Source: Croceimicrobium sp. (GTDB taxonomy: Bacteria > Bacteroidota > Bacteroidia > Flavobacteriales > Schleiferiaceae). Taken from it: a DNA stretch of 64,000 nucleotides. Position 1 is the stretch's first letter; the number at the start of each line of letters is the position of its first letter. The notes beneath the pieces are model-generated. The model was not told the origin of the DNA. It did not search any database and saw nothing but the letters and a program-made list of their open reading frames with translations. Position numbers and translations under genes: made by a program. This document shows, in pieces, positions 7,360 to 54,176 of the stretch. The stretch covers positions 475,274 to 539,273 of the forward strand of contig OZ257133.1 in the NCBI GenBank assembly GCA_965279135.1, written 5' to 3'.

Positions 7360-10300
7360 ATGATTTACCGCACTCTGTTAATTCTTCTGGCTTTTAGTTA
7401 TTGGGCTTCTGCTCAAGAGTATAAGGCCATGATGTTAGATCCTCAGTATTCCATTCCGGAAGTTAAAGCTGCTGCTGAAGCATGGTTTGAGGCAAATGGC
7501 AAGGGAGAGGGCTCCGGCCATAAGGGATTTCAACGTTGGCTTTGGGCTAATGAGTTTAAATATGGGCCGGAAGGAAATCGCGCTGAGGTGGACCCCTATT
7601 TTGTTTCTAAGCAATGGCAAAGTATTCAAGCTAATATGGAACAGAGTGCATCCACACAATGGGTGGATATGGGTCCATACAGTATAGATAGCATTACTGG
7701 CCATTATAGTCCTGGCTTGGGTCGAGTTGAGTGCTTTTACGAGGACCCTAATGATTCCGATTATCTCTATCTGGGATCACGGAGCGGTGGCTTTTGGAAA
7801 AGTACTGACGGTGGTCAGAATTGGGCGAGTTCCACTACTGAATTTCTGGTAGCTACCGGCGTAAACACAATGACCGTTTCTCCTACAAATCGGGACTCGG
7901 TTCTTATTAATCTTAGAAATGCCCGCAATGGCACCAGTCATGGAATCTACCGTTCGGTTGATGGTGGGCAAACCTGGAATCAAACTCCTTTTAATCCTGT
8001 GAACCTTTCCTGGATGGGTATGGGAACAAGTGGGCAGGTTTATCAATTGGCTTATCATCCCAGCATTCCCAATCGAGTTTATGTGGGAACGAATGATGGG
8101 CTTTACATTTCTAATGATAATCTTCAAACCTGGACCAGAGTGTTGAGTCAGGCTAATGTTACTCATATCCAGTTTCACCCCACTGATACAGCGGTGGTAT
8201 ACATTTACGATGATTATTTCTGGGGACCTAATGGAGATGTGGTTCTGGTGTCAAATGACGGAGGGCTTACTTTCACTAGTAGTGCCACTTTAACAAATAA
8301 CAGTGGTTCAAATGTTGAAATTGCAGTGAGTCCTGATTGTCCAAATTGCCTTTACGCAGCATCTGCAAACGGGGTTTGGAAAAGCACCGATCAAGGAGGG
8401 AATTTTAAATTCATGACCAATCCTCCCGGAGTATGCGACGGTTTTGCAGTTAGCGATGTGGACACTTCTATCATGGTCTACGGTATGTTAGACATACATC
8501 GAAGTGATGACGGGGGTCAAAGTTTCAGTCAGGTTGCCGACTGGTTTATAAACGGACCTCAGGGGTTCAACAGTCCTCAATACGTTCATGCCGATCTGCG
8601 AGAGATTATCAGTCGAAATGGAGAGTTTATAATTGGGACGGATGGTTATCTGGCTCGAAGCACCAACACGGGTCAGGATTGGCAAAGACTCTCACGAGGT
8701 ACCGGCATTCGAGAAAACTATTCGATAGGTTTATCTCAAAGTGAGTCTTATAGTACCATGGCTGGCTCTCAGGATAATGGGACCAGTATTTACCGCAAAG
8801 AAGGCTGGGTTGAGTTTTATGGGGCGGATGGTATGGAGTCGATCATACATCCATTGAATCCAGAATGGATGATGGGAAGTGTGCAGTTTGGGACGCGACG
8901 TCTCACTTTCGATGCGGGCAGAACCCAGCAAGGAGCTACTCCTTCAGGACAATCGGGATCATGGGAAGCTCCACTTGATCGCAGCAGTACCGACCATTTT
9001 AAGATTTACCACTTTGGAGACAATATATACAGTAGCACTGATTACGGATTGAACTGGACCCAGGTAGGATCTCCATTGTTTACTAATGAAGTAGCAAGAG
9101 CTGCAATTGCTCCGAATGATGGAGATATACTAGCAGTTTCCTGGAGTAATGCCTTTCAAATGTCATTTAATGGAGGTCAGACATTTCGATTTAGGGGAAC
9201 CGGTTTACCTAATTCTACCATAACCGATATCGCTTTTGCCCCTCATTCCGATTCCATTATAATAGTTACTTACGGCACTCATCAGAACAATGGGAATAAG
9301 GTGTTTATCACCTATGATCAAGGAAACTCCTGGACAAATATCACCGCTAATTTGGGGGATATGCCAATCCGAACGGCTGTGATAGATGACAGTCCGGATC
9401 ACAACATTTACTTAGGAGCAGAAATAGGTGTTTATGTAAAGCCTTTGAACGGTAACAATTGGACTTTATACAATACTGGCTTGCCAAATATGACCGTCAC
9501 AGATCTGGAGATCATGCATGGAGCCAATCTACTTCGAGCCTCAACCTGGGGAAGAGGAATGTGGCAGATTTCCCTAAAAGATCGAGCCGCTTACCCTAAA
9601 ATTGCGGAAACCTATCTGGAGCATCGTGTAGGCTTTCAATCGCCCACCGACGTTATGGCCCAAAATGTTCGAGCCTTAATTTCCTACGGAGCAAATGTGG
9701 ATACGGTTTATTTGCATTGGTCTTTAAATTCCCTGAGCCTGGATAGTAGTATTGCTATGGTGAATCTGCGGGATTCGACTTGGCAAACCGTAAGACCTAT
9801 TCCGGCTCAAGCGGTAGGTGGAGATATCTACTTTAAAGTTTTTGCGGTAGGGGATCAAAATGACACATCAGCGACCTACCGTTTCCACTACCGGGTGCAG
9901 GATGAGGGATATTGCCAAACCGGTAACACCAGCACGTTTACGCCAAATTATATTGATGAGGTAATCCTTTCCAATCTTCAGCATACCAGCGGTCGTTCAG
10001 CCTATCGGGATTTCACCACATTATTTGCCAATTTGAATACCAATCAGACTTATACCTTGTCTGTTCACGTGCGCAATCCTGAACCGGGCGATAGGGTTTT
10101 GGCCTGGATAGACTACAATAATGATTCTGCCTTTGCGTGGGATGAGGCATTGCCGGTGGATCCTATTGATCCGCAGGATTATGCCTATGCAACCTTTACG
10201 GTACCTCAGTTTAGCGATGACGATACGGTAAGAATGCGGATTCGAATTATGCCGGATTACATTCAAGCTGACGCCTGTAACTTTTATGGGGGAGAAGCCG

Positions 10301-35519: not shown

Positions 35520-36029
35520 ATGTCAACTTTAGCAACCCTATATTATTTAAAAGCTTTGGATGCTTATCCTTACGAGCTTGCCGAAGTGGAGGAAAATCTC
35601 AACTACGCGCTGGCTTACGATTCAGAGCATCTTTCCAGCCTTTGTCTTAAGTCGCGGCTTTACCTCCAGGATTTAGGATGGATTCAAGAGGCTCGAGAAA
35701 TAGCCGAGCAGGCACTAGCAATTGATCCTAATCACCCTTGTGCTGCAATGGCTTTGCTCAACAGTCTGATTGAAGGTCGAGACTTAAAGAAAGCTATACG
35801 TTTTTTAAGTCATATTGAACGGAATGTACCATTAAAGCCATTATATATTTATCAGTATATGGCTAAAATAATGGACTTAAAATTTGAATATAATATTGCT
35901 ATTAATTACTACAAAATGGCAATTATTAATTCTGATAATGTTCAATTAACAGCAAATATCGAGCAAGATATTTCTCAACTTAAAGCAAAACGTAAGCAAA
36001 AGGCCAAACTGAAGCTTAAACGGAATTAA
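35520..36029 (+). CDS. TPR-like repeat protein with a lysine-rich tail
   Basis: Helical repeats (YYLKALDAYP..., AIDPNHP, YYKMAII). C-terminus KAKRKQKAKLKLKRN. Confidence 0.6.
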   Translation: MSTLATLYYLKALDAYPYELAEVEENLNYALAYDSEHLSSLCLKSRLYLQDLGWIQEAREIAEQALAIDPNHPCAAMALLNSLIEGRDLKKAIRFLSHIERNVPLKPLYIYQYMAKIMDLKFEYNIAINYYKMAIINSDNVQLTANIEQDISQLKAKRKQKAKLKLKRN

Positions 36030-36122
36030 GAAATCGGTTCGATCAAACCGAAGGCTATATGTGTGTCTCTCTGCATGGCACCATGGTGCAGGAAACTGTA
36101 TACCGCTTACAATTGATCATCA

Positions 36123-36191
36123 CGCTGTGGTTATGGGTTCGATTCCCATATATGGTGAAAGCCATATTAGCTCAAATGGTAGAGTTCAGTG
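36123..36191 (+). ncRNA. circularly permuted tRNA-like module (anticodon-stem 3' strand, variable loop, T-arm, 7-bp acceptor-like stem capped by GAAA, U8-N9, D-arm, anticodon-stem 5' strand)
   Basis: Helices: 36123-27/36187-91; 36133-37/36145-49 with loop TTCGATT; 36150-56/36161-67 with loop GAAA; 36170-73/36182-85 with loop AAATGGTA. The conserved tRNA tertiary nucleotides are present. Confidence 0.55.
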
Positions 36192-36195
36192 AACC

Positions 36196-36229
36196 TGGGG
36201 TTCGACTCCCCGCTGTATTTGAGATACAG
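36196..36229 (+). ncRNA. second T-arm (TGGGG-TTCGACT-CCCCG) plus an abutting 6-bp hairpin
   Basis: Read directly from the sequence. The 17 nt GGGGTTCGACTCCCCGC are identical to the tmRNA T-arm region (reverse complement of 46887-46903). Confidence 0.45.
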
Positions 36230-36530
36230 TTGTTTGGCCGTAGGGCTCCTCCCTTTAACGGAGACCGGTGATGGAAACATCACCATCAGAATGGAGTAAG
36301 ATCCCTCCTTAAAAGGATCACCCACATAGTGAAGGGATTGTATAAGATCACCTGGTTGGTCGATATACCGGTTGATGCATTTGCACCCTAGGAATTCCTT
36401 TTCCTGATTTTGAATTGGGCGAGGCCGGCTAGTCCCTGGATTTTGATGGAAGGGAAGACTAGGGTCCATGCTAAAGCTGCCCTTCGCTCTTGTGGTATTA
36501 TTAAACGGCTTAGGCCATAAATGAAAAGAG

Positions 36531-37628
36531 ATGTTAAGATTGATTAGAACTCCTAAAGGGGCAGTGAGTGTGCTCTTTAAAAATGGAAGTATTGAAGAAG
36601 TGTGGACCAATAGCACTCGCTGGTTATGGACTACAGGAAGTATCAGCCAATTCCTGATGGGAAGTAGGGTAGATTTACCCAGAGGGGTAGAGCTCGAAGC
36701 GAACAAAGAGGCAATTAAAGACTTTGCTGAGATCATCGAGTTGAAGCAAGGAGAGATTGCGGTGCATCTGCGAAACGGGGTCTTTTACAATGTATTGATT
36801 CCCGGAGTTTACGCCTTCTGGCGGGGAGTTCGAGACAATGAATTCCTAAAGCTGGACACCACTGAACTTGAGCTGCCCGAGAACCTCAATAAAGTTTTAT
36901 GGCCAGTCCTTAAAACCAAGGGTTTCCTGCGCAGGTTTAAAGTAGCCCAAGGCGAAGAAGGATTGCTATTGCGGAACGGTGAATTGCTTCGCCATTTGAA
37001 TCCCGGTGAGTACTTCTTCTGGAATAACCAGGAAGACCTACAAGTGCTGAGTGCAAGTATGAAGCGTCAAACACTGGAATTGAACGGCCAAGAAATGCTT
37101 AGTCGTGATAAGGCGACCTTAAGAATTAACCTCTTGGCTGAGATGAAAGTGGTGAACCTTGAACAAGCACTAATGCAAAACAAAGAGTTCAGCAAACAAG
37201 CTTACTTATTGTTGTCAATGGCCCTTAGAAGCTTTGTTGCTCGCTTAAGTCTGGATGAACTTCTAGGTGGAAAAGAGCAATTGGCAGAAAGTGTCGCCGA
37301 GACCAGTAAAGCATCTTTCGCTGAACTTGGACTTGAACTCATTAGCGTCGGAATTCGAGACATTATCCTACCCGGTGAAATGCGGGAAATTATGAATCAA
37401 GTGTTGATTGCCGAAAAGAAGGCGCAAGCCAACTTGGTTACCCGCAGGGAGGAAACCGCCTCAACCCGAAGCTTGATGAACACGGCTAAATTGATGGAAA
37501 ACAACCCCATGCTCTGGAAATTGAAAGAGATGGAGTACCTGGAAAAGGTAGTAGAGAAAGTGGGCACCATTAACATTTCCGGTGGAGAGCTGGGAGAGAA
37601 ATTACGTCAGATTTTCTCTTCTGCTTAG
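36531..37628 (+). CDS. slipin-family SPFH/band-7 protein
   Basis: Three N-terminal (F/L)xNGxxxxxLxPGxYxFW repeats. SPFH core (LDELLGGKEQL..., GIRDIILPGEMREIM). Confidence 0.8.
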   Translation: MLRLIRTPKGAVSVLFKNGSIEEVWTNSTRWLWTTGSISQFLMGSRVDLPRGVELEANKEAIKDFAEIIELKQGEIAVHLRNGVFYNVLIPGVYAFWRGVRDNEFLKLDTTELELPENLNKVLWPVLKTKGFLRRFKVAQGEEGLLLRNGELLRHLNPGEYFFWNNQEDLQVLSASMKRQTLELNGQEMLSRDKATLRINLLAEMKVVNLEQALMQNKEFSKQAYLLLSMALRSFVARLSLDELLGGKEQLAESVAETSKASFAELGLELISVGIRDIILPGEMREIMNQVLIAEKKAQANLVTRREETASTRSLMNTAKLMENNPMLWKLKEMEYLEKVVEKVGTINISGGELGEKLRQIFSSA

Positions 37629-37730: not shown

Positions 37731-38060
37731 ATGGGAGTTACACGAAATGATCTCTTTAGTGAGGAGCAGAATGAATTGGCGCTTTTGGCCAAGGTTTTAG
37801 GTCATCCTGCGCGAATTGCAATCCTTCAATATTTGCTAAAGGCCCAGGCCTGTATCAATGGGGACCTGGTGAAGGAATTGGGTCTGGCTCAGGCCACGAT
37901 TAGTCAGCATCTTAGAGAGTTGAAGTCAGTAGGTATCATTCAGGGTACAATCGAAGGAACCTCAGTTTGCTATTGCATAAACCCCGAGCGTTGGTCGGAA
38001 ATCGACGCACGATTCAAATCCCTATTCGCTTCCTTTTCCAATCAGGATCATTGCTGTTAA
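37731..38060 (+). CDS. arsR: ArsR/SmtB-family transcriptional repressor
   Basis: LAKVLGHPARIAILQYL and ATISQHLRELKSVGI. Confidence 0.88.
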   Translation: MGVTRNDLFSEEQNELALLAKVLGHPARIAILQYLLKAQACINGDLVKELGLAQATISQHLRELKSVGIIQGTIEGTSVCYCINPERWSEIDARFKSLFASFSNQDHCC

Positions 38061-38061
38061 A

Positions 38062-38664
38062 ATGATATACCCCAAACTTCAATCCTACATCGAGCAGATA
38101 GATACGAATTCCATTTCGGAAGAGCGCAAAACGGTCTTGCAAGCCCTAATTGAATATTCTAAAACTGCTGAGCCATTAAGGCTGAATTTCATTTGTACGC
38201 ATAATTCCCGACGATCTCAGTTTGCTCAGGTTTGGGCGATGGTAGCGGCCCATTATTTCGGGCTAGATCTCGAAAGCTACTCCGGTGGTGTAGAGGTTAC
38301 CGCTTGTAATCAAAGGACAGTAGAGGCCCTGGAGCGGGCGGGATTTTCCGTTTCCGGCGATCGCAACCTTCCGAATCCCCACTATCAAATTGCCTTTGGT
38401 GATGGCTTACCCTCGATCAAGGCTTTTTCTAAACTTTACGATGATCCTGTAAATCCCAAAAGCGATTTTGCAGCGGTAATGACTTGCTCTGATGCGGATG
38501 AAAATTGCCCCTTCATTCCCGGAACCAAAGCGCGCATTGCCTTGAATTATAAAGACCCCAAAGCATTTGATGATACGGATTTAGAAGGAAGTGCCTATGA
38601 TGAGCGCTGCCTGCAGATCGCGACCGAAATGTTCTACCTATTTCAATCGCTGAAGAATGGCTAA
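38062..38664 (+). CDS. arsC: arsenate reductase, LMW-PTP (thioredoxin-coupled) type
   Basis: CTHNSRRS P-loop plus a CSDADENC cysteine pair, in an ars operon context. Confidence 0.8.
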
Positions 38665-39703
38665 AAAGCGTTTATCATTTTTAGATCGTTACCTCACTTT
38701 GTGGATTTTTATTGCCATGCTTCTTGGGGTCGGCTTAGGAAATCTTTCTCCTGAATTTGCAGGCCTGATTGAAAAGTCTGGAAGCGGTAGCACTAACATT
38801 CCATTGGCTATTGGTTTAATCCTAATGATGTATCCGCCCCTGGCCAAAGTCAATTATCGTCTCCTGCCCAAGGTATTTAAGAACATCCGGGTTTTAAGCA
38901 TTTCCTTAATTCTTAACTGGATTATTGGACCGGTATTGATGTTTGTATTAGCCCTGATTTTCCTCCATGATTATCCGGAATATATGACGGGCTTAATCTT
39001 AATCGGACTGGCTCGATGTATTGCTATGGTTTTAGTTTGGAACGACCTGGCTGAAGGCTCTGCAGAGTATGGGGCGGGTCTGGTTGCCCTAAATAGTATT
39101 TTTCAGGTTTTCGCTTACAGCTTTTACGCCTGGATATTTATCACTCAACTTCCACCTCTTCTAGGTTATGAAGGAGCGGTAGTAGATATATCCATCGGAT
39201 TGATCGCCAAGAGTGTTGCCATTTATCTAGGTATCCCTTTTGTGATGGGAATTCTTAGTAGGGTTATTTTGGTTCCTCTAAAAGGCGAAGATTGGTATAC
39301 GGAACAATTTCTACCTAGAATTTCGCCCATCACGCTCGTCGCTTTGTTGCTCACCATCGTGTTGATGTTTAGCTTGAAAGGGGAGTTGATCGTTCAATTA
39401 CCCGGCGATGTCCTTCTCATAGCTGTTCCACTTTTAATCTACTTTGCTTTGATGTTTGTCTTAGGATTCTTCTTTAGCAAATGGATGGGCGCCGACTATG
39501 ATCAAAACGCTGCAATTTCCTTTACGGCGGCCGGCAATAATTTTGAGCTTGCTATTGCCGTAGCCATTGCCGTCTTTGGTTTAAATTCTGGTCAGGCTTT
39601 TACGGGGGTAATTGGACCGTTGGTTGAAGTTCCGGCATTGATTCTTCTGGTTCGGGTAGCTTTCTATTTTCGAGATAGGTTTTACTCCCGATCATCCTCA
39701 TAA
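38657..39703 (+). CDS. ACR3-family arsenite efflux transporter
   Basis: [22 protein letters not shown] and GLARCIAMV. Confidence 0.9.
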
Positions 39704-44329: not shown

Positions 44330-45400
44330 CTATATTGGCCAATAGATTTTTCGTAATGGGACTAAGGCCTTAACTTCTGGTGCAAGTGTTTCATAGTTAT
44401 CGACAAGTAACTCCGCTAGGAGTTCAAAGTCTACTAGAGTGATGGGGAAATTAGCCCTTTCCGCTTCGTATTTGGCATCTTGAGTGAAGCCTGTGGTGGA
44501 TACGTAAATCCCCTTCTCGATATTTCTTAAGCCACCAATGAAATTTCGTAACTCTGGTGCAGAGACTTTCTCTTTACTCTGGCTTTTGTGTTTAACTTCG
44601 GCTTTAATCCTAGGTTCTAACATACCTAATCCGTCAGGGGAAGCATGTATATCACTTCCTAAATCTCTAACTTTTGGTGTCAATCGGCTCTTATAGCCCA
44701 TTGCAGTTAGAATTCCAGCAACAAGTTTTTCAATTTGGTTGGAGTCTAATTCAGCTATCGAATCTTGAATAAAGTCAATAGATCGCGCGACTACCTCTTC
44801 TCTTATCCGATCCTCTTGTTCTTTCTCGAATTCTTTTATGGATTCATCCTCATGTTGTTTCAATATTGAAACCTGCTCAGCGAACTCTTCTTCAGAAATA
44901 TATCCTGGGTGGGCGGCTCTAATTTCATTAAACACTTGCTCTGGTATTTCGAAAAGGGTTAAAATTGAACCTAGTATGTTTTTTGATTCAGGAGTGAGTT
45001 GATCTCTATCAATTGGATACTCATTCCATTCGACCTTTCTGAAATGGTGAAATTTGTAGGAAGTATTATATCCATAGTCCGAAATTATTTCACCAAAGTA
45101 GTAACATCTACTATCGGTATCATAGGTGACAATATTGTGCCCTTCTTTTATTTCATCAATGAACCTCCACATTTGACCTGAACTTTGATTTAATCGTCCA
45201 GGTGAAAACTCAGGATATGAGGATTGAAGTCTTTTCTTTAAATCTTTGTACTTCGTTTTTCTGGAAATTTTACCTGTTTCATTCCATCCTAAAGCGCAAA
45301 TGCCTTTATCTAAAAATTCATGGAGTAAAAAGCTTCCTTGCCCGGATCTTACCATCCATGCTTTGGGTTTATTTGATTGATTCATAGTTTTTATGACCAT
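44330..45400 (-). CDS. Mrr-cat (PD-(D/E)xK) restriction endonuclease-like protein with an uncharacterised ~170-aa N-terminal domain
   Basis: C-terminal LVAGILTAMGY...GSDIHASPD...KAEVKHK (D...ExK) ...GIYVSTTGFT. N-terminal AWMVRSGQGSFLLHEFLDKGICALGW. The alternative start is at 45385. Confidence 0.75.
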   Translation of the reverse strand: MVIKTMNQSNKPKAWMVRSGQGSFLLHEFLDKGICALGWNETGKISRKTKYKDLKKRLQSSYPEFSPGRLNQSSGQMWRFIDEIKEGHNIVTYDTDSRCYYFGEIISDYGYNTSYKFHHFRKVEWNEYPIDRDQLTPESKNILGSILTLFEIPEQVFNEIRAAHPGYISEEEFAEQVSILKQHEDESIKEFEKEQEDRIREEVVARSIDFIQDSIAELDSNQIEKLVAGILTAMGYKSRLTPKVRDLGSDIHASPDGLGMLEPRIKAEVKHKSQSKEKVSAPELRNFIGGLRNIEKGIYVSTTGFTQDAKYEAERANFPITLVDFELLAELLVDNYETLAPEVKALVPLRKIYWPI

Positions 45401-46877: not shown

Positions 46878-47278
46878 GGTGGAGCTGCGGGGAGTCGAAC
46901 CCCGGTGCAAACAAGGAAGTGGAAGGCTTTCTACATGCTTATTTTGTTATTCGATTGTCGACTAGCATCTGGGAACAAACACCCCAATACTAGCTTAGTT
47001 GCGGATTACAGTGTCGCGGGCATTACGCAACGCACTACCCGTTAGTCCAGATTTAATGACACCCCTGAGTCCAAACCATCTAGACTTAGGTTCGGAGGGA
47101 TGACTTGCTCTCGCGTCTTACGCGTAGATTAGCTCAAAGCCTCATCAGAGTGCTTAGGCGGCAAGTGCGAAGTTATTTTCGCCAATTATAATTTGAAGCA
47201 TCTTTTTTACGGGAGACATCTCCATGTCCCGACATGCTTACATTCGACTTCATCTTGCTGTCGAAACCGATCAGCCCC
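46878..47278 (-). ncRNA. ssrA: transfer-messenger RNA (tmRNA)
   Basis: 5' end GGGGCTGATCGGTTTCGACAGC. Tag reading frame GGC GAA AAT AAC TTC GCA CTT GCC GCC TAA = GENNFALAA* (47154-47183). 3' end CGGGGTTCGACTCCCCGCAGCTCCACC. Confidence 0.95.
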
Positions 47279-52022: not shown

Positions 52023-54176
52023 TTAGTTTTCGCTCTGCTCTTGCTTAGGCTTTTCCTGGCGTTCTGGTTTTGGCAATAACACTTTGCGGGAAAGCTTAAG
52101 CTTACCGCGGTCATCTTTACCAATTAGTTTTACTTCAACGCGCTCTCCCTCTTTCAACACTTCGTCTACTGTTTTCAAGCGACGGTGCTCAATTTCGGAG
52201 ATGTGTAATAGTCCATCTGTTCCCGGAGCTAATTCTACAAAGGCGCCGTAAGGCTGAATGGAGCGAACCAATCCATTGTATACTTCTCCAACTTCAGGTA
52301 CAAAAGCGATCTCTCGGATACGCGCTTCAGCTTGAGCCATTTTAGCAGCATCAGTGCCACTGATTTCAATGATACCGAAATCACCTTCCTCTTCAATAGT
52401 GATGGTAGTCTCTGTATCAAGCTGCAATTTTTGGATATTCTTTCCTCCTGGTCCGATGATCATTCCAATGAAGTCTTTTGGAATCTTCATCATATTCAAT
52501 TTCGGAGCATGAGGCTTAAGTTCGGTACGAGGAGCATCGATGGTCTTCAACATCTCACCTAAGATGTGCAAACGGCCGGCGTTAGCTTGCATCAAAGCTT
52601 TTTCGAGAATCTCATAACTCAATCCGCTAATCTTGATGTCCATCTGACAAGCAGTGATACCTTTTTCAGTACCGGTAACTTTGAAGTCCATATCACCTAA
52701 GTGGTCTTCATCACCCAGGATATCACTTAATACCGCGTAATTGCCAGTCTCATCAGTGATCAATCCCATAGCAATCCCTGAAACAGGAGCCTTGATTTTG
52801 ATACCCGCATCCATAAGAGCCAGGGTTCCGGCACATACGGTGGCCATAGAAGAAGAACCGTTAGACTCAAGGATATCTGAAACTACGCGAATAGTGTAGA
52901 AGTTATCTTCAGGAACAATGCCTTTTAGAGCACGTTGGGCTAGGTTACCATGTCCCACCTCACGACGGCTGGTACCACGAATTGGACGGGCCTCACCAGT
53001 AGAGAAAGGAGGGAAGTTATAATGAAGATAAAAGCGCTCTGAACCACTAAAGGTTACATTATCGATACGGTTTTCATCTAATTTACTTCCTAAGGTAACG
53101 GTGGTTAAAGACTGAGTTTCTCCACGAGTAAACACGGCTGAACCATGCGTTGAAGGGAGGTAATCAACTTCGGTCCAGATTGGACGAATTTCATCGAGTT
53201 GACGGCCATCTAAACGCTGACGATCATTTAAGATCATATTACGCATGGCGTGGTACTCCACATCATGGTAATAGGTCTTAATTAATCCCGATTTTTCTTC
53301 GAGCTCTTCTTCACTGAAGTTAGCCTCCATGTATTCATCACGAACGGCTTTGAATTGCTCAGAGCGTTGTTCTTTGCTCAAGCCACTTTTAGCAACTTCG
53401 AACACCTTGTCATAGAGGTCGCTCATGATTTTTTCGCGAAGCTCTTCGTCATGAGTCTCGTGGCTGTACTCACGTTTTACCGCAGCCTTTTCCACTTTCG
53501 CTGCTAAATCTAGCTGCGCTTGAACCTGAACTTTAATCGCTTCGTGAGCAGCTTGAATTGCCGCTAGCATCTCTTGTTCAGAGATTTCATCCATTTCTCC
53601 TTCCACCATCACCACACTGTCGGCAGTAGCTCCAACCATCATATCGATGTCAGACTCTTCCATCTGAGCGGTACTCGGATTAATAACGAATTCGCCATTT
53701 ACGCGAGCTACGCGAACTTCAGACATTGGTCCATTAAATGGAATATCCGAAACAGCAATTGCAGCAGAAGCGGCTAAACCGGCTAGTGCATCCGGGCGTA
53801 CGTTTTGGTCCCAGGAGTTTAAGGAAATCATCACCTGAACATCAGCGTGATAATCCTTAGGGAAGAGTGGACGTAATACGCGGTCAACTAAGCGCATTAC
53901 CAGAATTTCCTCATCACTTGGACGAGCCTCTCTCTTTATAAAACCGCCAGGCATACGGCCTGCGGCAGAAAATTTTTCGCGATAATCTACAGTAAGTGGC
54001 AAGAAATCTACCCCCTCCATAGCTTCTTTATTGGAAACTACAGTCGCCAACAACATGGTATCTCCCATGCGAACCATTACCGAACCGTCCGCTTGCTTAG
54101 CTAACTTCCCGGTTTCGATGGTAATGGTTCTCCCATCTGCTAATGTTATTTCCTGCGTAATTACGTTTGGAATCAT
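52023..54176 (-). CDS. pnp: polyribonucleotide nucleotidyltransferase (PNPase)
   Basis: Two RNase PH domains, a KH domain and an S1 domain ([18 protein letters not shown]). Confidence 0.95.

Follow-up and report, generated by a model that had tools for sequence, protein, structure and literature searches.

Two described kinds of bacterial RNA come closest to an element found upstream of a gene for a soluble SPFH/Band-7 protein in Croceimicrobium sp. (Flavobacteriales), within a 64,000-nucleotide stretch of contig OZ257133.1 (assembly GCA_965279135.1, positions 475,274 to 539,273 of the forward strand), here called the window. One is the Band-7-associated tRNA-like RNA (b7a-tRNA), which according to the summary in the Discussion of Wang et al. 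(bioRxiv 10.1101/312249) was predicted in RtcB RNA-repair systems by Burroughs and Aravind in 2016 and is said to strongly resemble authentic tRNA. The same summary mentions that YrlA RNA occasionally lies adjacent to Band-7 and calls these predictions as yet unvalidated. The other is YrlA itself, defined by Chen et al. 2014 (PMC4201824) by its adjacency to rsr, the motif GNCGAAN0-1G in a Ro-binding stem and a tRNA-like domain. In Mycobacterium smegmatis the YrlA RNA, which has a 7-bp acceptor stem, is cleaved by RNase P and receives CCA, and YrlA and YrlB are co-transcribed upstream of rsr, processed from the rsr precursor and act as trans components of ribonucleoprotein particles (RNPs) (PMC4201824). 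A further independent pointer to a link between SPFH proteins and RNA repair is PaFlo8, an SPFH protein encoded inside the rtc locus of Pseudomonas aeruginosa. A literature search found no experimental work on an SPFH-RNA particle.

In the window, a conserved RNA of about 500 nt includes a circularly permuted tRNA-like module as one of its domains. This RNA is strictly linked to the soluble SPFH gene, which follows it directly on the same strand. An earlier reading of the window, made from its letters only and referred to here as the sequence-only reading, had presented a free-standing 69-nt module and had considered a new RNA class. The first description gives way to the larger RNA, and the second was anticipated in 2016, when, as summarised by Wang et al., both a Band-7-associated tRNA-like RNA and YrlA beside Band-7 were predicted. 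As in b7a-tRNA, a tRNA-like non-coding RNA lies beside a Band-7/SPFH gene, RtcB is adjacent in 34 related loci, and the RNA is of the YrlA type that the summary places beside Band-7. Unlike b7a-tRNA, as far as that second-hand summary describes the class, the window module is permuted and sits inside a much longer RNA with no RtcB in the window; the resemblance to authentic tRNA is missing in the window and is found in loci of Bryobacterales (Acidobacteriota). The window RNA is filed here under the predicted Band-7-associated class known from that summary, in a YrlA-like permuted form and not as YrlA proper, because it combines a tRNA-like domain and Band-7 adjacency but has no Ro-binding stem, no Ro motif, no neighbouring rsr and no sufficient Rfam score.

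A permuted tRNA mimic

The module reads as the 3′ strand of an anticodon stem, a variable (V) loop, a T arm, a closed 7-bp acceptor-like hairpin, U8/A9, a D arm and the 5′ strand of the anticodon stem. CGCTG (36123-27) and CAGTG (36187-91) form the closing helix with one G.U pair, the T arm is ATGGG-TTCGATT-CCCAT, the acceptor-like hairpin is ATATGGT-GAAA-GCCATAT followed by the connector TA, and the D arm is GCTC-AAATGGTA-GAGT. Every helix and connector proposed by the sequence-only reading was recovered in place, and the minimum free energy (MFE) structure of the 69 nt is exactly this three-way fold, at −19.4 kcal/mol. The z-score of the fold energy is modest (−2.36), with 5 of 200 shuffled sequences being equally stable.

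As had been suggested, the module mimics a tRNA without being a tRNA gene. ARAGORN called neither a tRNA nor a permuted tmRNA at the site, the Rfam tRNA model scored 17.6 bits against a cut-off of 29, the anticodon loop is absent and the acceptor-like stem is closed by GAAA. At gathering thresholds no Rfam family spans the spacer, either in the window or in 28 related loci. With relaxed thresholds, the best Rfam match in 35900-36700 is YrlA (RF02553) at 36125-36190 (30.8 bits, E 1.4e-4), the sole family with a sub-threshold match at the module, and it is confined to the tRNA-like domain (model positions 23-86 of 114), leaving out the Ro-binding stem. The earlier likening of the topology to the tRNA-like domain of YrlA is thereby borne out over exactly that domain. 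A covariance model built solely from loci outside the window's clade (model R2) found 36120-36197 in the 64-kb window with 47.8 bits (E 5.7e-11), the runner-up match having an E-value of 0.52.

YrlA and the window module share the permuted order of T arm, closed acceptor-like stem-loop and D arm joined via the equivalent of the anticodon stem, as well as the conserved tRNA nucleotides, and the 7-bp acceptor-like stem matches that of the RNase P-cleaved YrlA of M. smegmatis (PMC4201824). They differ in that the YrlA match stays below the gathering score of 69, the Ro-binding stem (model positions 1-22 and 87-114) goes without a match, no rsr is adjacent in the window, and the window module is a domain of a much larger RNA linked to SPFH. 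The motif GNCGAAN0-1G was not found in 36030-36530, and its occurrence in relatives is at chance level (20 of 75, compared to 14 of 75 shuffles). The YrlA gathering score was missed by 28 of 28 related loci, including the rsr-adjacent modules of locus L028 described below, so the Rfam threshold may be insensitive for Bacteroidota. Two-piece tmRNA and the permuted tRNA genes of Cyanidioschyzon resemble the module in the order of T arm, acceptor 3′ strand, short linker and acceptor 5′ strand and in having downstream pseudoknots, but the window module lacks CCA, a tag reading frame and an anticodon loop.

Linkage to the SPFH gene

Related loci were gathered by relatives of the SPFH protein, 11 of them from species genomes and 80 from metagenomes, and linkage was counted in sources with at least 450 nt of upstream sequence. 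In 81 of the 83 sources, R1, the covariance model of the module, matched over its full length on the same strand within the 800 nt that precede the SPFH start. The distance from module to SPFH start is 357-677 nt with a median of 475; in the window the Band_7 gene begins 340 nt past the module. The strict pattern of T arm, hairpin and D arm was seen in 66 of 79 loci. Carriers span Flavobacteriales and Cytophagales and include Arcicella, Zhouia, Chryseobacterium sp. MYb264 and Chryseolinea serpens, and SPFH is the sole gene common to all loci. In Chryseobacterium sp. MYb264 the locus is near 4.449 Mb of CP142422.1. The neighbours, which the sequence-only reading had treated as uninformative, are the opposite: besides the SPFH linkage, homologues of the upstream TPR gene recur beside the RNA/SPFH pair in 17 sources, distant ones included. 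A phage system was rejected as a candidate, with one SPFH homologue only among viral contigs.

Both exceptions to the linkage are Bryobacterales loci with a tRNA-like element in normal order. In three Bryobacterales loci a sigma-70 promoter is followed by a leader of about 450 nt containing such an element, which is called as a tRNA by both ARAGORN and Rfam with anticodons that differ (CAT, CAC and TCG) at orthologous positions, and whose acceptor stem is only 5 bp long and runs on into the flanking RNA. From these topologies, the mimic is joined to its RNA via the acceptor stem in Acidobacteriota and via the anticodon stem in Bacteroidota. The leaders of both phyla have the motifs GTATACCG, CTGAAA and CTTCCG in common, and in the Bryobacterales leaders the Bacteroidota leader profile aligns to the tRNA-like part only. 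The non-tRNA parts and 3′ domains may be homologous across the phyla, as the short shared motifs hint. Directly after the SPFH gene of one Bryobacterales locus, L010, positions 7911-7983 match group II intron domains V/VI with 60 bits.

Selection on the tRNA-like fold

Covariation was assessed in a model-based alignment of 70 distinct homologous sequences. Standard pairs make up 96.4% of the pair cells, compared to 70.5% with shuffled partners and 39-50% when the partners were moved along by 1-3 columns, and none of 500 shuffles attained any of the pairing measures. Double-sided, compensatory changes occur in 19 of 21 pairs and in all four helices, with 7 of 7 pairs in the acceptor-like strands and 5 of 5 in the closing helix; the covariation that had been proposed as a check on relatives is thus found. 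As the alignment was fitted to the model, which favours pairing, the tertiary 15-48 contact between the second D-loop base and the last V-loop base, which the model does not encode, was chosen as an independent test. All 70 sequences pair there: 50 have G-C, 19 have A-U and one has U-A. U8, A14, T54-T55-C56 and A58 are invariant in the 70 sequences, and the nucleotides of tRNA tertiary interactions as a whole (U8, A14, G18-G19, T54-Psi55-C56, A58 and 15-48) are invariant or near-invariant. The pattern indicates an L-shaped, tRNA-like tertiary fold.

These data bear directly on the possibility that the module lacks a selected function of its own and is either a decayed junction between two tandem tRNA genes or a true permuted tRNA gene. 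Arrays of tRNA genes do lie upstream in many related loci (see below), and the module model also picks up some real array junctions, such as L025 23-107 with 65 bits, which makes an origin from tandem tRNAs plausible. Neutral decay of tRNA remnants is, however, excluded by the 15-48 pair and the invariant tRNA nucleotides, and the covariation of the acceptor-like strands and closing helix contradicts it as well, while the unmodelled 15-48 covariation argues against an alignment artefact of model fitting. Moreover, conservation of the module extends across orders, with its position relative to SPFH fixed; it lacks an anticodon loop, and no tRNA call is made for it, which leaves this explanation with hardly any probability.

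The RNA around the module

The spacer between the TPR and SPFH genes (36030-36530) is 501 nt long, and the lack of conservation that the sequence-only reading had named as a refutation is not seen: within the window's clade (the window, L001-L005 and L012) the whole spacer can be aligned, with invariant blocks along its full length (alignment A1), and conservation of the RNA starts right past the TPR stop codon. Open reading frames (ORFs) in the spacer were rejected as protein-coding, not being conserved as proteins. The spacer is accordingly one conserved non-coding structured region that comprises a 5′ domain, a first mimic, the remnant of a second mimic, a pseudoknot and a 3′ domain (Table 1). 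The RNAalifold consensus, computed from six clade members, contains P1, the 5′ domain with its GNRA hairpin, the module, T arm 2 and the long-range helix of the 3′ domain.

Table 1. Coordinates of the RNA domains and flanking genes in the window
Feature	Position	Strand	Basis
TPR-repeat protein gene, 169 aa	35520-36029	+	Pfam TPR_19
5′ hairpin P1 (TCGGTT-CGATCA-AACCGA)	36034-36051	+	MFE fold; RNAalifold consensus of six clade members
Conserved 5′ domain: CTGNATGGC..GGTG, GNRA hairpin (36086-36101), TATACCG	36063-36105	+	Near-invariant in alignment A1
Circularly permuted tRNA-like module	36123-36191	+	Pattern, fold, Rfam, covariation and covariance-model evidence
Remnant second module: T arm 2 and hairpin h2	36197-36230	+	Second T loop of relatives; clade covariation
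7-bp GAAA-capped hairpin (GGTGATG-GAAA-CATCACC)	36267-36284	+	MFE fold; position variable among relatives
H-type pseudoknot	36293-36319	+	Present in most relatives
3′ domain: invariant GCCGGCTA and CTGCCC blocks, predicted long-range helix 36422-29/36476-83	36422-36483	+	Alignment A1 columns; RNAalifold
Soluble SPFH/Band-7 ("slipin family") protein gene, 365 aa	36531-37628	+	Pfam Band_7, residues 137-308

In the 5′ domain, the GAAA hairpin has one compensatory pair in alignment A1, and a profile of other Bacteroidota leaders aligns to window positions 36071-36220 (E 5.8e-6). Downstream of the module, T arm 2 (GGGG-TTCGACT-CCCC, 36197-36211) and h2 (36212-36230, covarying inside the window's clade) are all that the window has kept of a second module. 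The T-loop motif occurs in 75 of 75 distinct upstream regions, usually twice and 55-70 nt apart, and many relatives have a complete module 2 consisting of a T arm, a hairpin, a D arm and a closed anticodon-like arm. In that arm the stem is conserved as CUACR/YGUAG around a canonical loop C-U-NNN-A-A with a variable "anticodon" (UUU, GUU, UAU, GAU and others); it was found 340-550 nt upstream of SPFH in L018, L033, L050, L054, L061, L083, L093 and other loci. The anticodon-arm mimic could be a bait for anticodon nucleases.

The pseudoknot has GGAG (36293-96) and CTCC (36305-08) as its first stem S1, and its second helix joins the loop GATCC (36300-04) to GGATC (36315-19) beyond an A-rich linker. 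An equivalent is present in about 40 loci downstream of the tRNA mimics, with the consensus GAAG-loop-CTTC-T(n)A(4-7)-complement of the loop. When loci were anchored on S1 and the A-run only, at least four consecutive loop-tail pairs were found in 84% of 50 loci, compared to 39% (maximum 54%) with partners permuted among loci. The long-range helix of the 3′ domain is present in the RNAalifold consensus and has 0 compensatory changes among the six sequences.

The SPFH partner protein

Classical SPFH proteins are membrane-anchored, whereas the window protein has no hydrophobic segment, its maximum 19-residue Kyte-Doolittle mean being 1.29. It bears the NCBI family name "slipin family protein", and more than 6,000 clusters match it at E < 1e-10. 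The NCBIfam scan gave only weak sub-threshold HflK/C matches, and no PADLOC defence-system model matched the SPFH or TPR protein. Its AlphaFold2 model (pLDDT 81) begins with two beta units at the N-terminus, continues with the SPFH domain and ends in long C-terminal helices. Foldseek ranked stomatin, HflK/C, QmcA and prohibitin at the top (E down to 7e-14) and aligned the major vault protein (MVP) over the whole length with E of about 2e-9 and TMq 0.44. The eukaryotic vault, which consists of MVP with an SPFH-like shoulder, vault RNA and the TROVE-domain protein TEP1, is similar in its beta-repeat units, SPFH domain and long helices, in having a structured small RNA and, in some of the loci, a TROVE protein, and in the length steps described next. 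It remains an analogy only, since stomatin, HflK/C and prohibitin are better matches than MVP. A cage- or vault-like SPFH assembly may be taken as a lead from the structural model and not as a result.

The lengths of family members (P0016-P0022, P0027, P0032 and P0040) are 365, 433 and about 503 aa, thus in steps of about 68-70 aa that recall the variable repeat domains of MVP. In P0032 (433 aa), the only longer member aligned, the extra 68 aa are an inserted copy of the N-terminal beta unit (alignment A2, columns 50-113).

Transcription signals and neighbouring genes

Fifteen loci have a 21-bp palindrome, CTACGCA-N7-TGCGYAG, and after it a Bacteroidota −7 box, at a distance of 560-1080 nt before the SPFH start. 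Sites include L006 at about 1612, L007 at about 7385 and 9815, L028 at about 113 and 2788, and L052 at about 3287, among others. The palindrome is often situated by a divergent WYL-WCX gene and also precedes other operons of the same loci, such as rsr in L028, and is probably the operator of a WYL-controlled regulon; WYL-WCX regulators are encoded in 17 loci and are upstream and divergent in most of them. There is no consistent terminator between the RNA and the SPFH ORF (18 of 75 loci, compared to 10 of 75 in the reverse-complement control), and this together with the shared upstream promoter and operator would make RNA and SPFH one inducible transcription unit. In the window itself, a sigma-70 scan and a search for the exact −7 box TAnnTTTG gave nothing upstream of the RNA or of the TPR gene.

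RtcB (PF01139) was detected by tblastn in the 34 related loci mentioned above, usually directly downstream of SPFH, and in L054 and L055 the TPR gene sits between SPFH and RtcB, which makes the TPR protein part of the system. TROVE/Ro60 is encoded within a few kb of SPFH in 5 related loci, including that of Chryseobacterium sp. MYb264. The nucleotidyltransferase RlaP, RNase T-like exonucleases, an RNase H-like protein and an AAA ATPase are recurrent, in 6-14 loci each.

Locus L028 carries a TROVE/Ro60 gene (174-1691) followed by two stand-alone permuted modules at 2413-2491 and 2561-2636, for which R1 gives 66.7 and 59.4 bits. Both have an 8-bp closing stem and GCCGTAGA in front of them. With this classic Y-RNA architecture they look like the Y RNAs of Bacteroidota, and Rfam YrlA at its gathering score misses them. 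Beyond rsr and these modules follow the operator, the large RNA and the Band-7 gene. Since the rsr modules are separate and the large RNA has its own operator and promoter, the latter seems to be the RNA of SPFH rather than of Rsr.

In many Bacteroidota loci, arrays of 5-11 tRNA genes were observed on the same strand 1.5-3.5 kb upstream of the RNA-SPFH unit (L025 69-2048, L075 324-1731, L046 88-1463, L033 593-1727, L070 1321-2122 and others). Many of these tRNAs begin with U/A rather than G and have no encoded CCA, and they may be the spare tRNA set of an RNA-damage island. The idea that they share one acceptor stem, which was considered as an explanation of the hairpins, failed beyond single junctions and was dropped.

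Directly after SPFH in the window, at 37731-39703 (+), are genes for ArsR, an ArsC-type low-molecular-weight phosphatase-like protein and an ACR3/SBF-family transporter. Together they are probably an arsenic-resistance operon that has nothing to do with the RNA-SPFH pair; ArsR keeps its position after SPFH in the window's clade. Further away are an Mrr-type restriction endonuclease domain protein (44330-45400, −), an ordinary one-piece tmRNA and a housekeeping PNPase (52023-54176, −). The tmRNA (46877 or 46878 to 47278, −; tag GENNFALAA, Rfam 146 bits) lies in a 1.9-kb stretch without a long ORF, and its call at 46878-47278 is the only one made by ARAGORN in the window. In Deinococcus, PNPase is the effector tethered by Y RNA-Ro60; nothing ties the window PNPase to the RNA-SPFH locus.

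Discussion

The reading favoured here, to which a probability of roughly 0.6 is given, is that the module is the tRNA-shaped domain of an SPFH/Band-7-associated RNA which would serve as cofactor or scaffold of an SPFH assembly. The RNA would be co-transcribed with SPFH and possibly processed from that transcript, as YrlA and YrlB are from the rsr precursor, and would then join the oligomeric SPFH protein, with the TPR protein, as cofactor or scaffold. The closed-acceptor, L-shaped mimic would offer a tRNA-like handle made up of the elbow and the acceptor-like helix, and candidates for docking on it would be the RtcB ligase, the RlaP nucleotidyltransferase, RNase P, the CCA-adding enzyme and modification enzymes. 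Such docking could tether RNA-repair or surveillance activities to the SPFH assembly in the way that Y RNA tethers Ro60 to PNPase. The local cassette in the window is reduced to the TPR protein, the RNA and SPFH, and any ligase would need to be encoded elsewhere.

Several points weigh against this. Binding of the RNA to the SPFH protein is suggested by gene linkage only, and no recognisable RNA-binding domain was found in the SPFH protein by the Pfam and NCBIfam scans. The correspondence between b7a-tRNA and this RNA is drawn from a second-hand summary of the 2016 work. Neither TROVE/Rsr nor RtcB or RtcA was found in the window among the 30 ORFs scanned, all those of at least 400 aa included, in agreement with the sequence-only reading, and the link to repair is therefore by homology of context and not local. 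Finally, with no consistent terminator in front of SPFH, a purely cis-acting leader explains the arrangement equally well.

Such a cis-regulatory leader is the main rival and is considered rather unlikely. A 5′ untranslated region of 0.5-1 kb would control the expression of SPFH (and RtcB), its mimics being baits or sensors for nucleases or processing enzymes whose cleavage or binding alters the stability or translation of the mRNA. The RNA does extend to the start codon, shares one promoter with the ORF in the 15 loci with palindrome and −7 box, and in Bryobacterales follows a sigma-70 promoter; the canonical anticodon loop with its variable triplet in the second module of relatives is also bait-like. 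The size, multi-domain conservation and tertiary-level tRNA mimicry are nevertheless beyond the needs of known leaders, the window module offers no anticodon loop to bait an anticodon nuclease, and co-transcription upstream of rsr does not prevent YrlA and YrlB from being trans RNP components (PMC4201824). It is improbable that the RNA is instead an orphan YrlA-type Y RNA binding a Ro60/Rsr encoded elsewhere in the genome, with SPFH as an incidental neighbour. The partial Rfam match to YrlA and the proximity of TROVE/Ro60 to SPFH in five related loci fit that explanation, but the unmatched Ro-binding stem, the absence of the GNCGAAN0-1G motif from the spacer and its chance-level frequency in relatives do not; linkage to SPFH (81/83) far exceeds linkage to Rsr (5 of about 90), and L028 carries separate, stem-closed YrlA-like RNAs by rsr. 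A bolder proposal goes beyond the cofactor or scaffold reading: an RNA of 0.5-0.7 kb and an MVP-like SPFH protein, with the TPR protein, might form a vault- or Ro-like RNP compartment that captures damaged tRNAs for repair or disposal, the RNA holding one or two mimics, permuted or normal in the same scaffold, plus the pseudoknot and 3′ domain. It is put forward as quite doubtful; if true, the compartment would be a bacterial SPFH-RNA particle without characterised precedent, built on an ornate RNA family absent from Rfam.

The pairing of Band-7 with a tRNA-like RNA has, as far as the summary by Wang et al. goes, been a purely computational prediction since 2016, and it has no Rfam family. As a kind, this RNA was already predicted then; the value of the present analysis is the newly documented extent, architecture and near-obligatory linkage, and the cultured carriers, which are Chryseobacterium sp. 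MYb264, Chryseolinea serpens, Arcicella aurantiaca DSM 22214 and Zhouia sp. PK063. It adds that the pairing is essentially obligatory across Bacteroidota, that the large RNA has several domains of which the tRNA mimic is just one, that selection acts on the tRNA fold of the mimic even at the level of a tertiary base pair, and that the same leader holds a permuted mimic in one phylum and an unpermuted one in another. This bears on the role of soluble SPFH proteins and on why the RtcB/Rsr repair operons keep recruiting tRNA-shaped RNAs.

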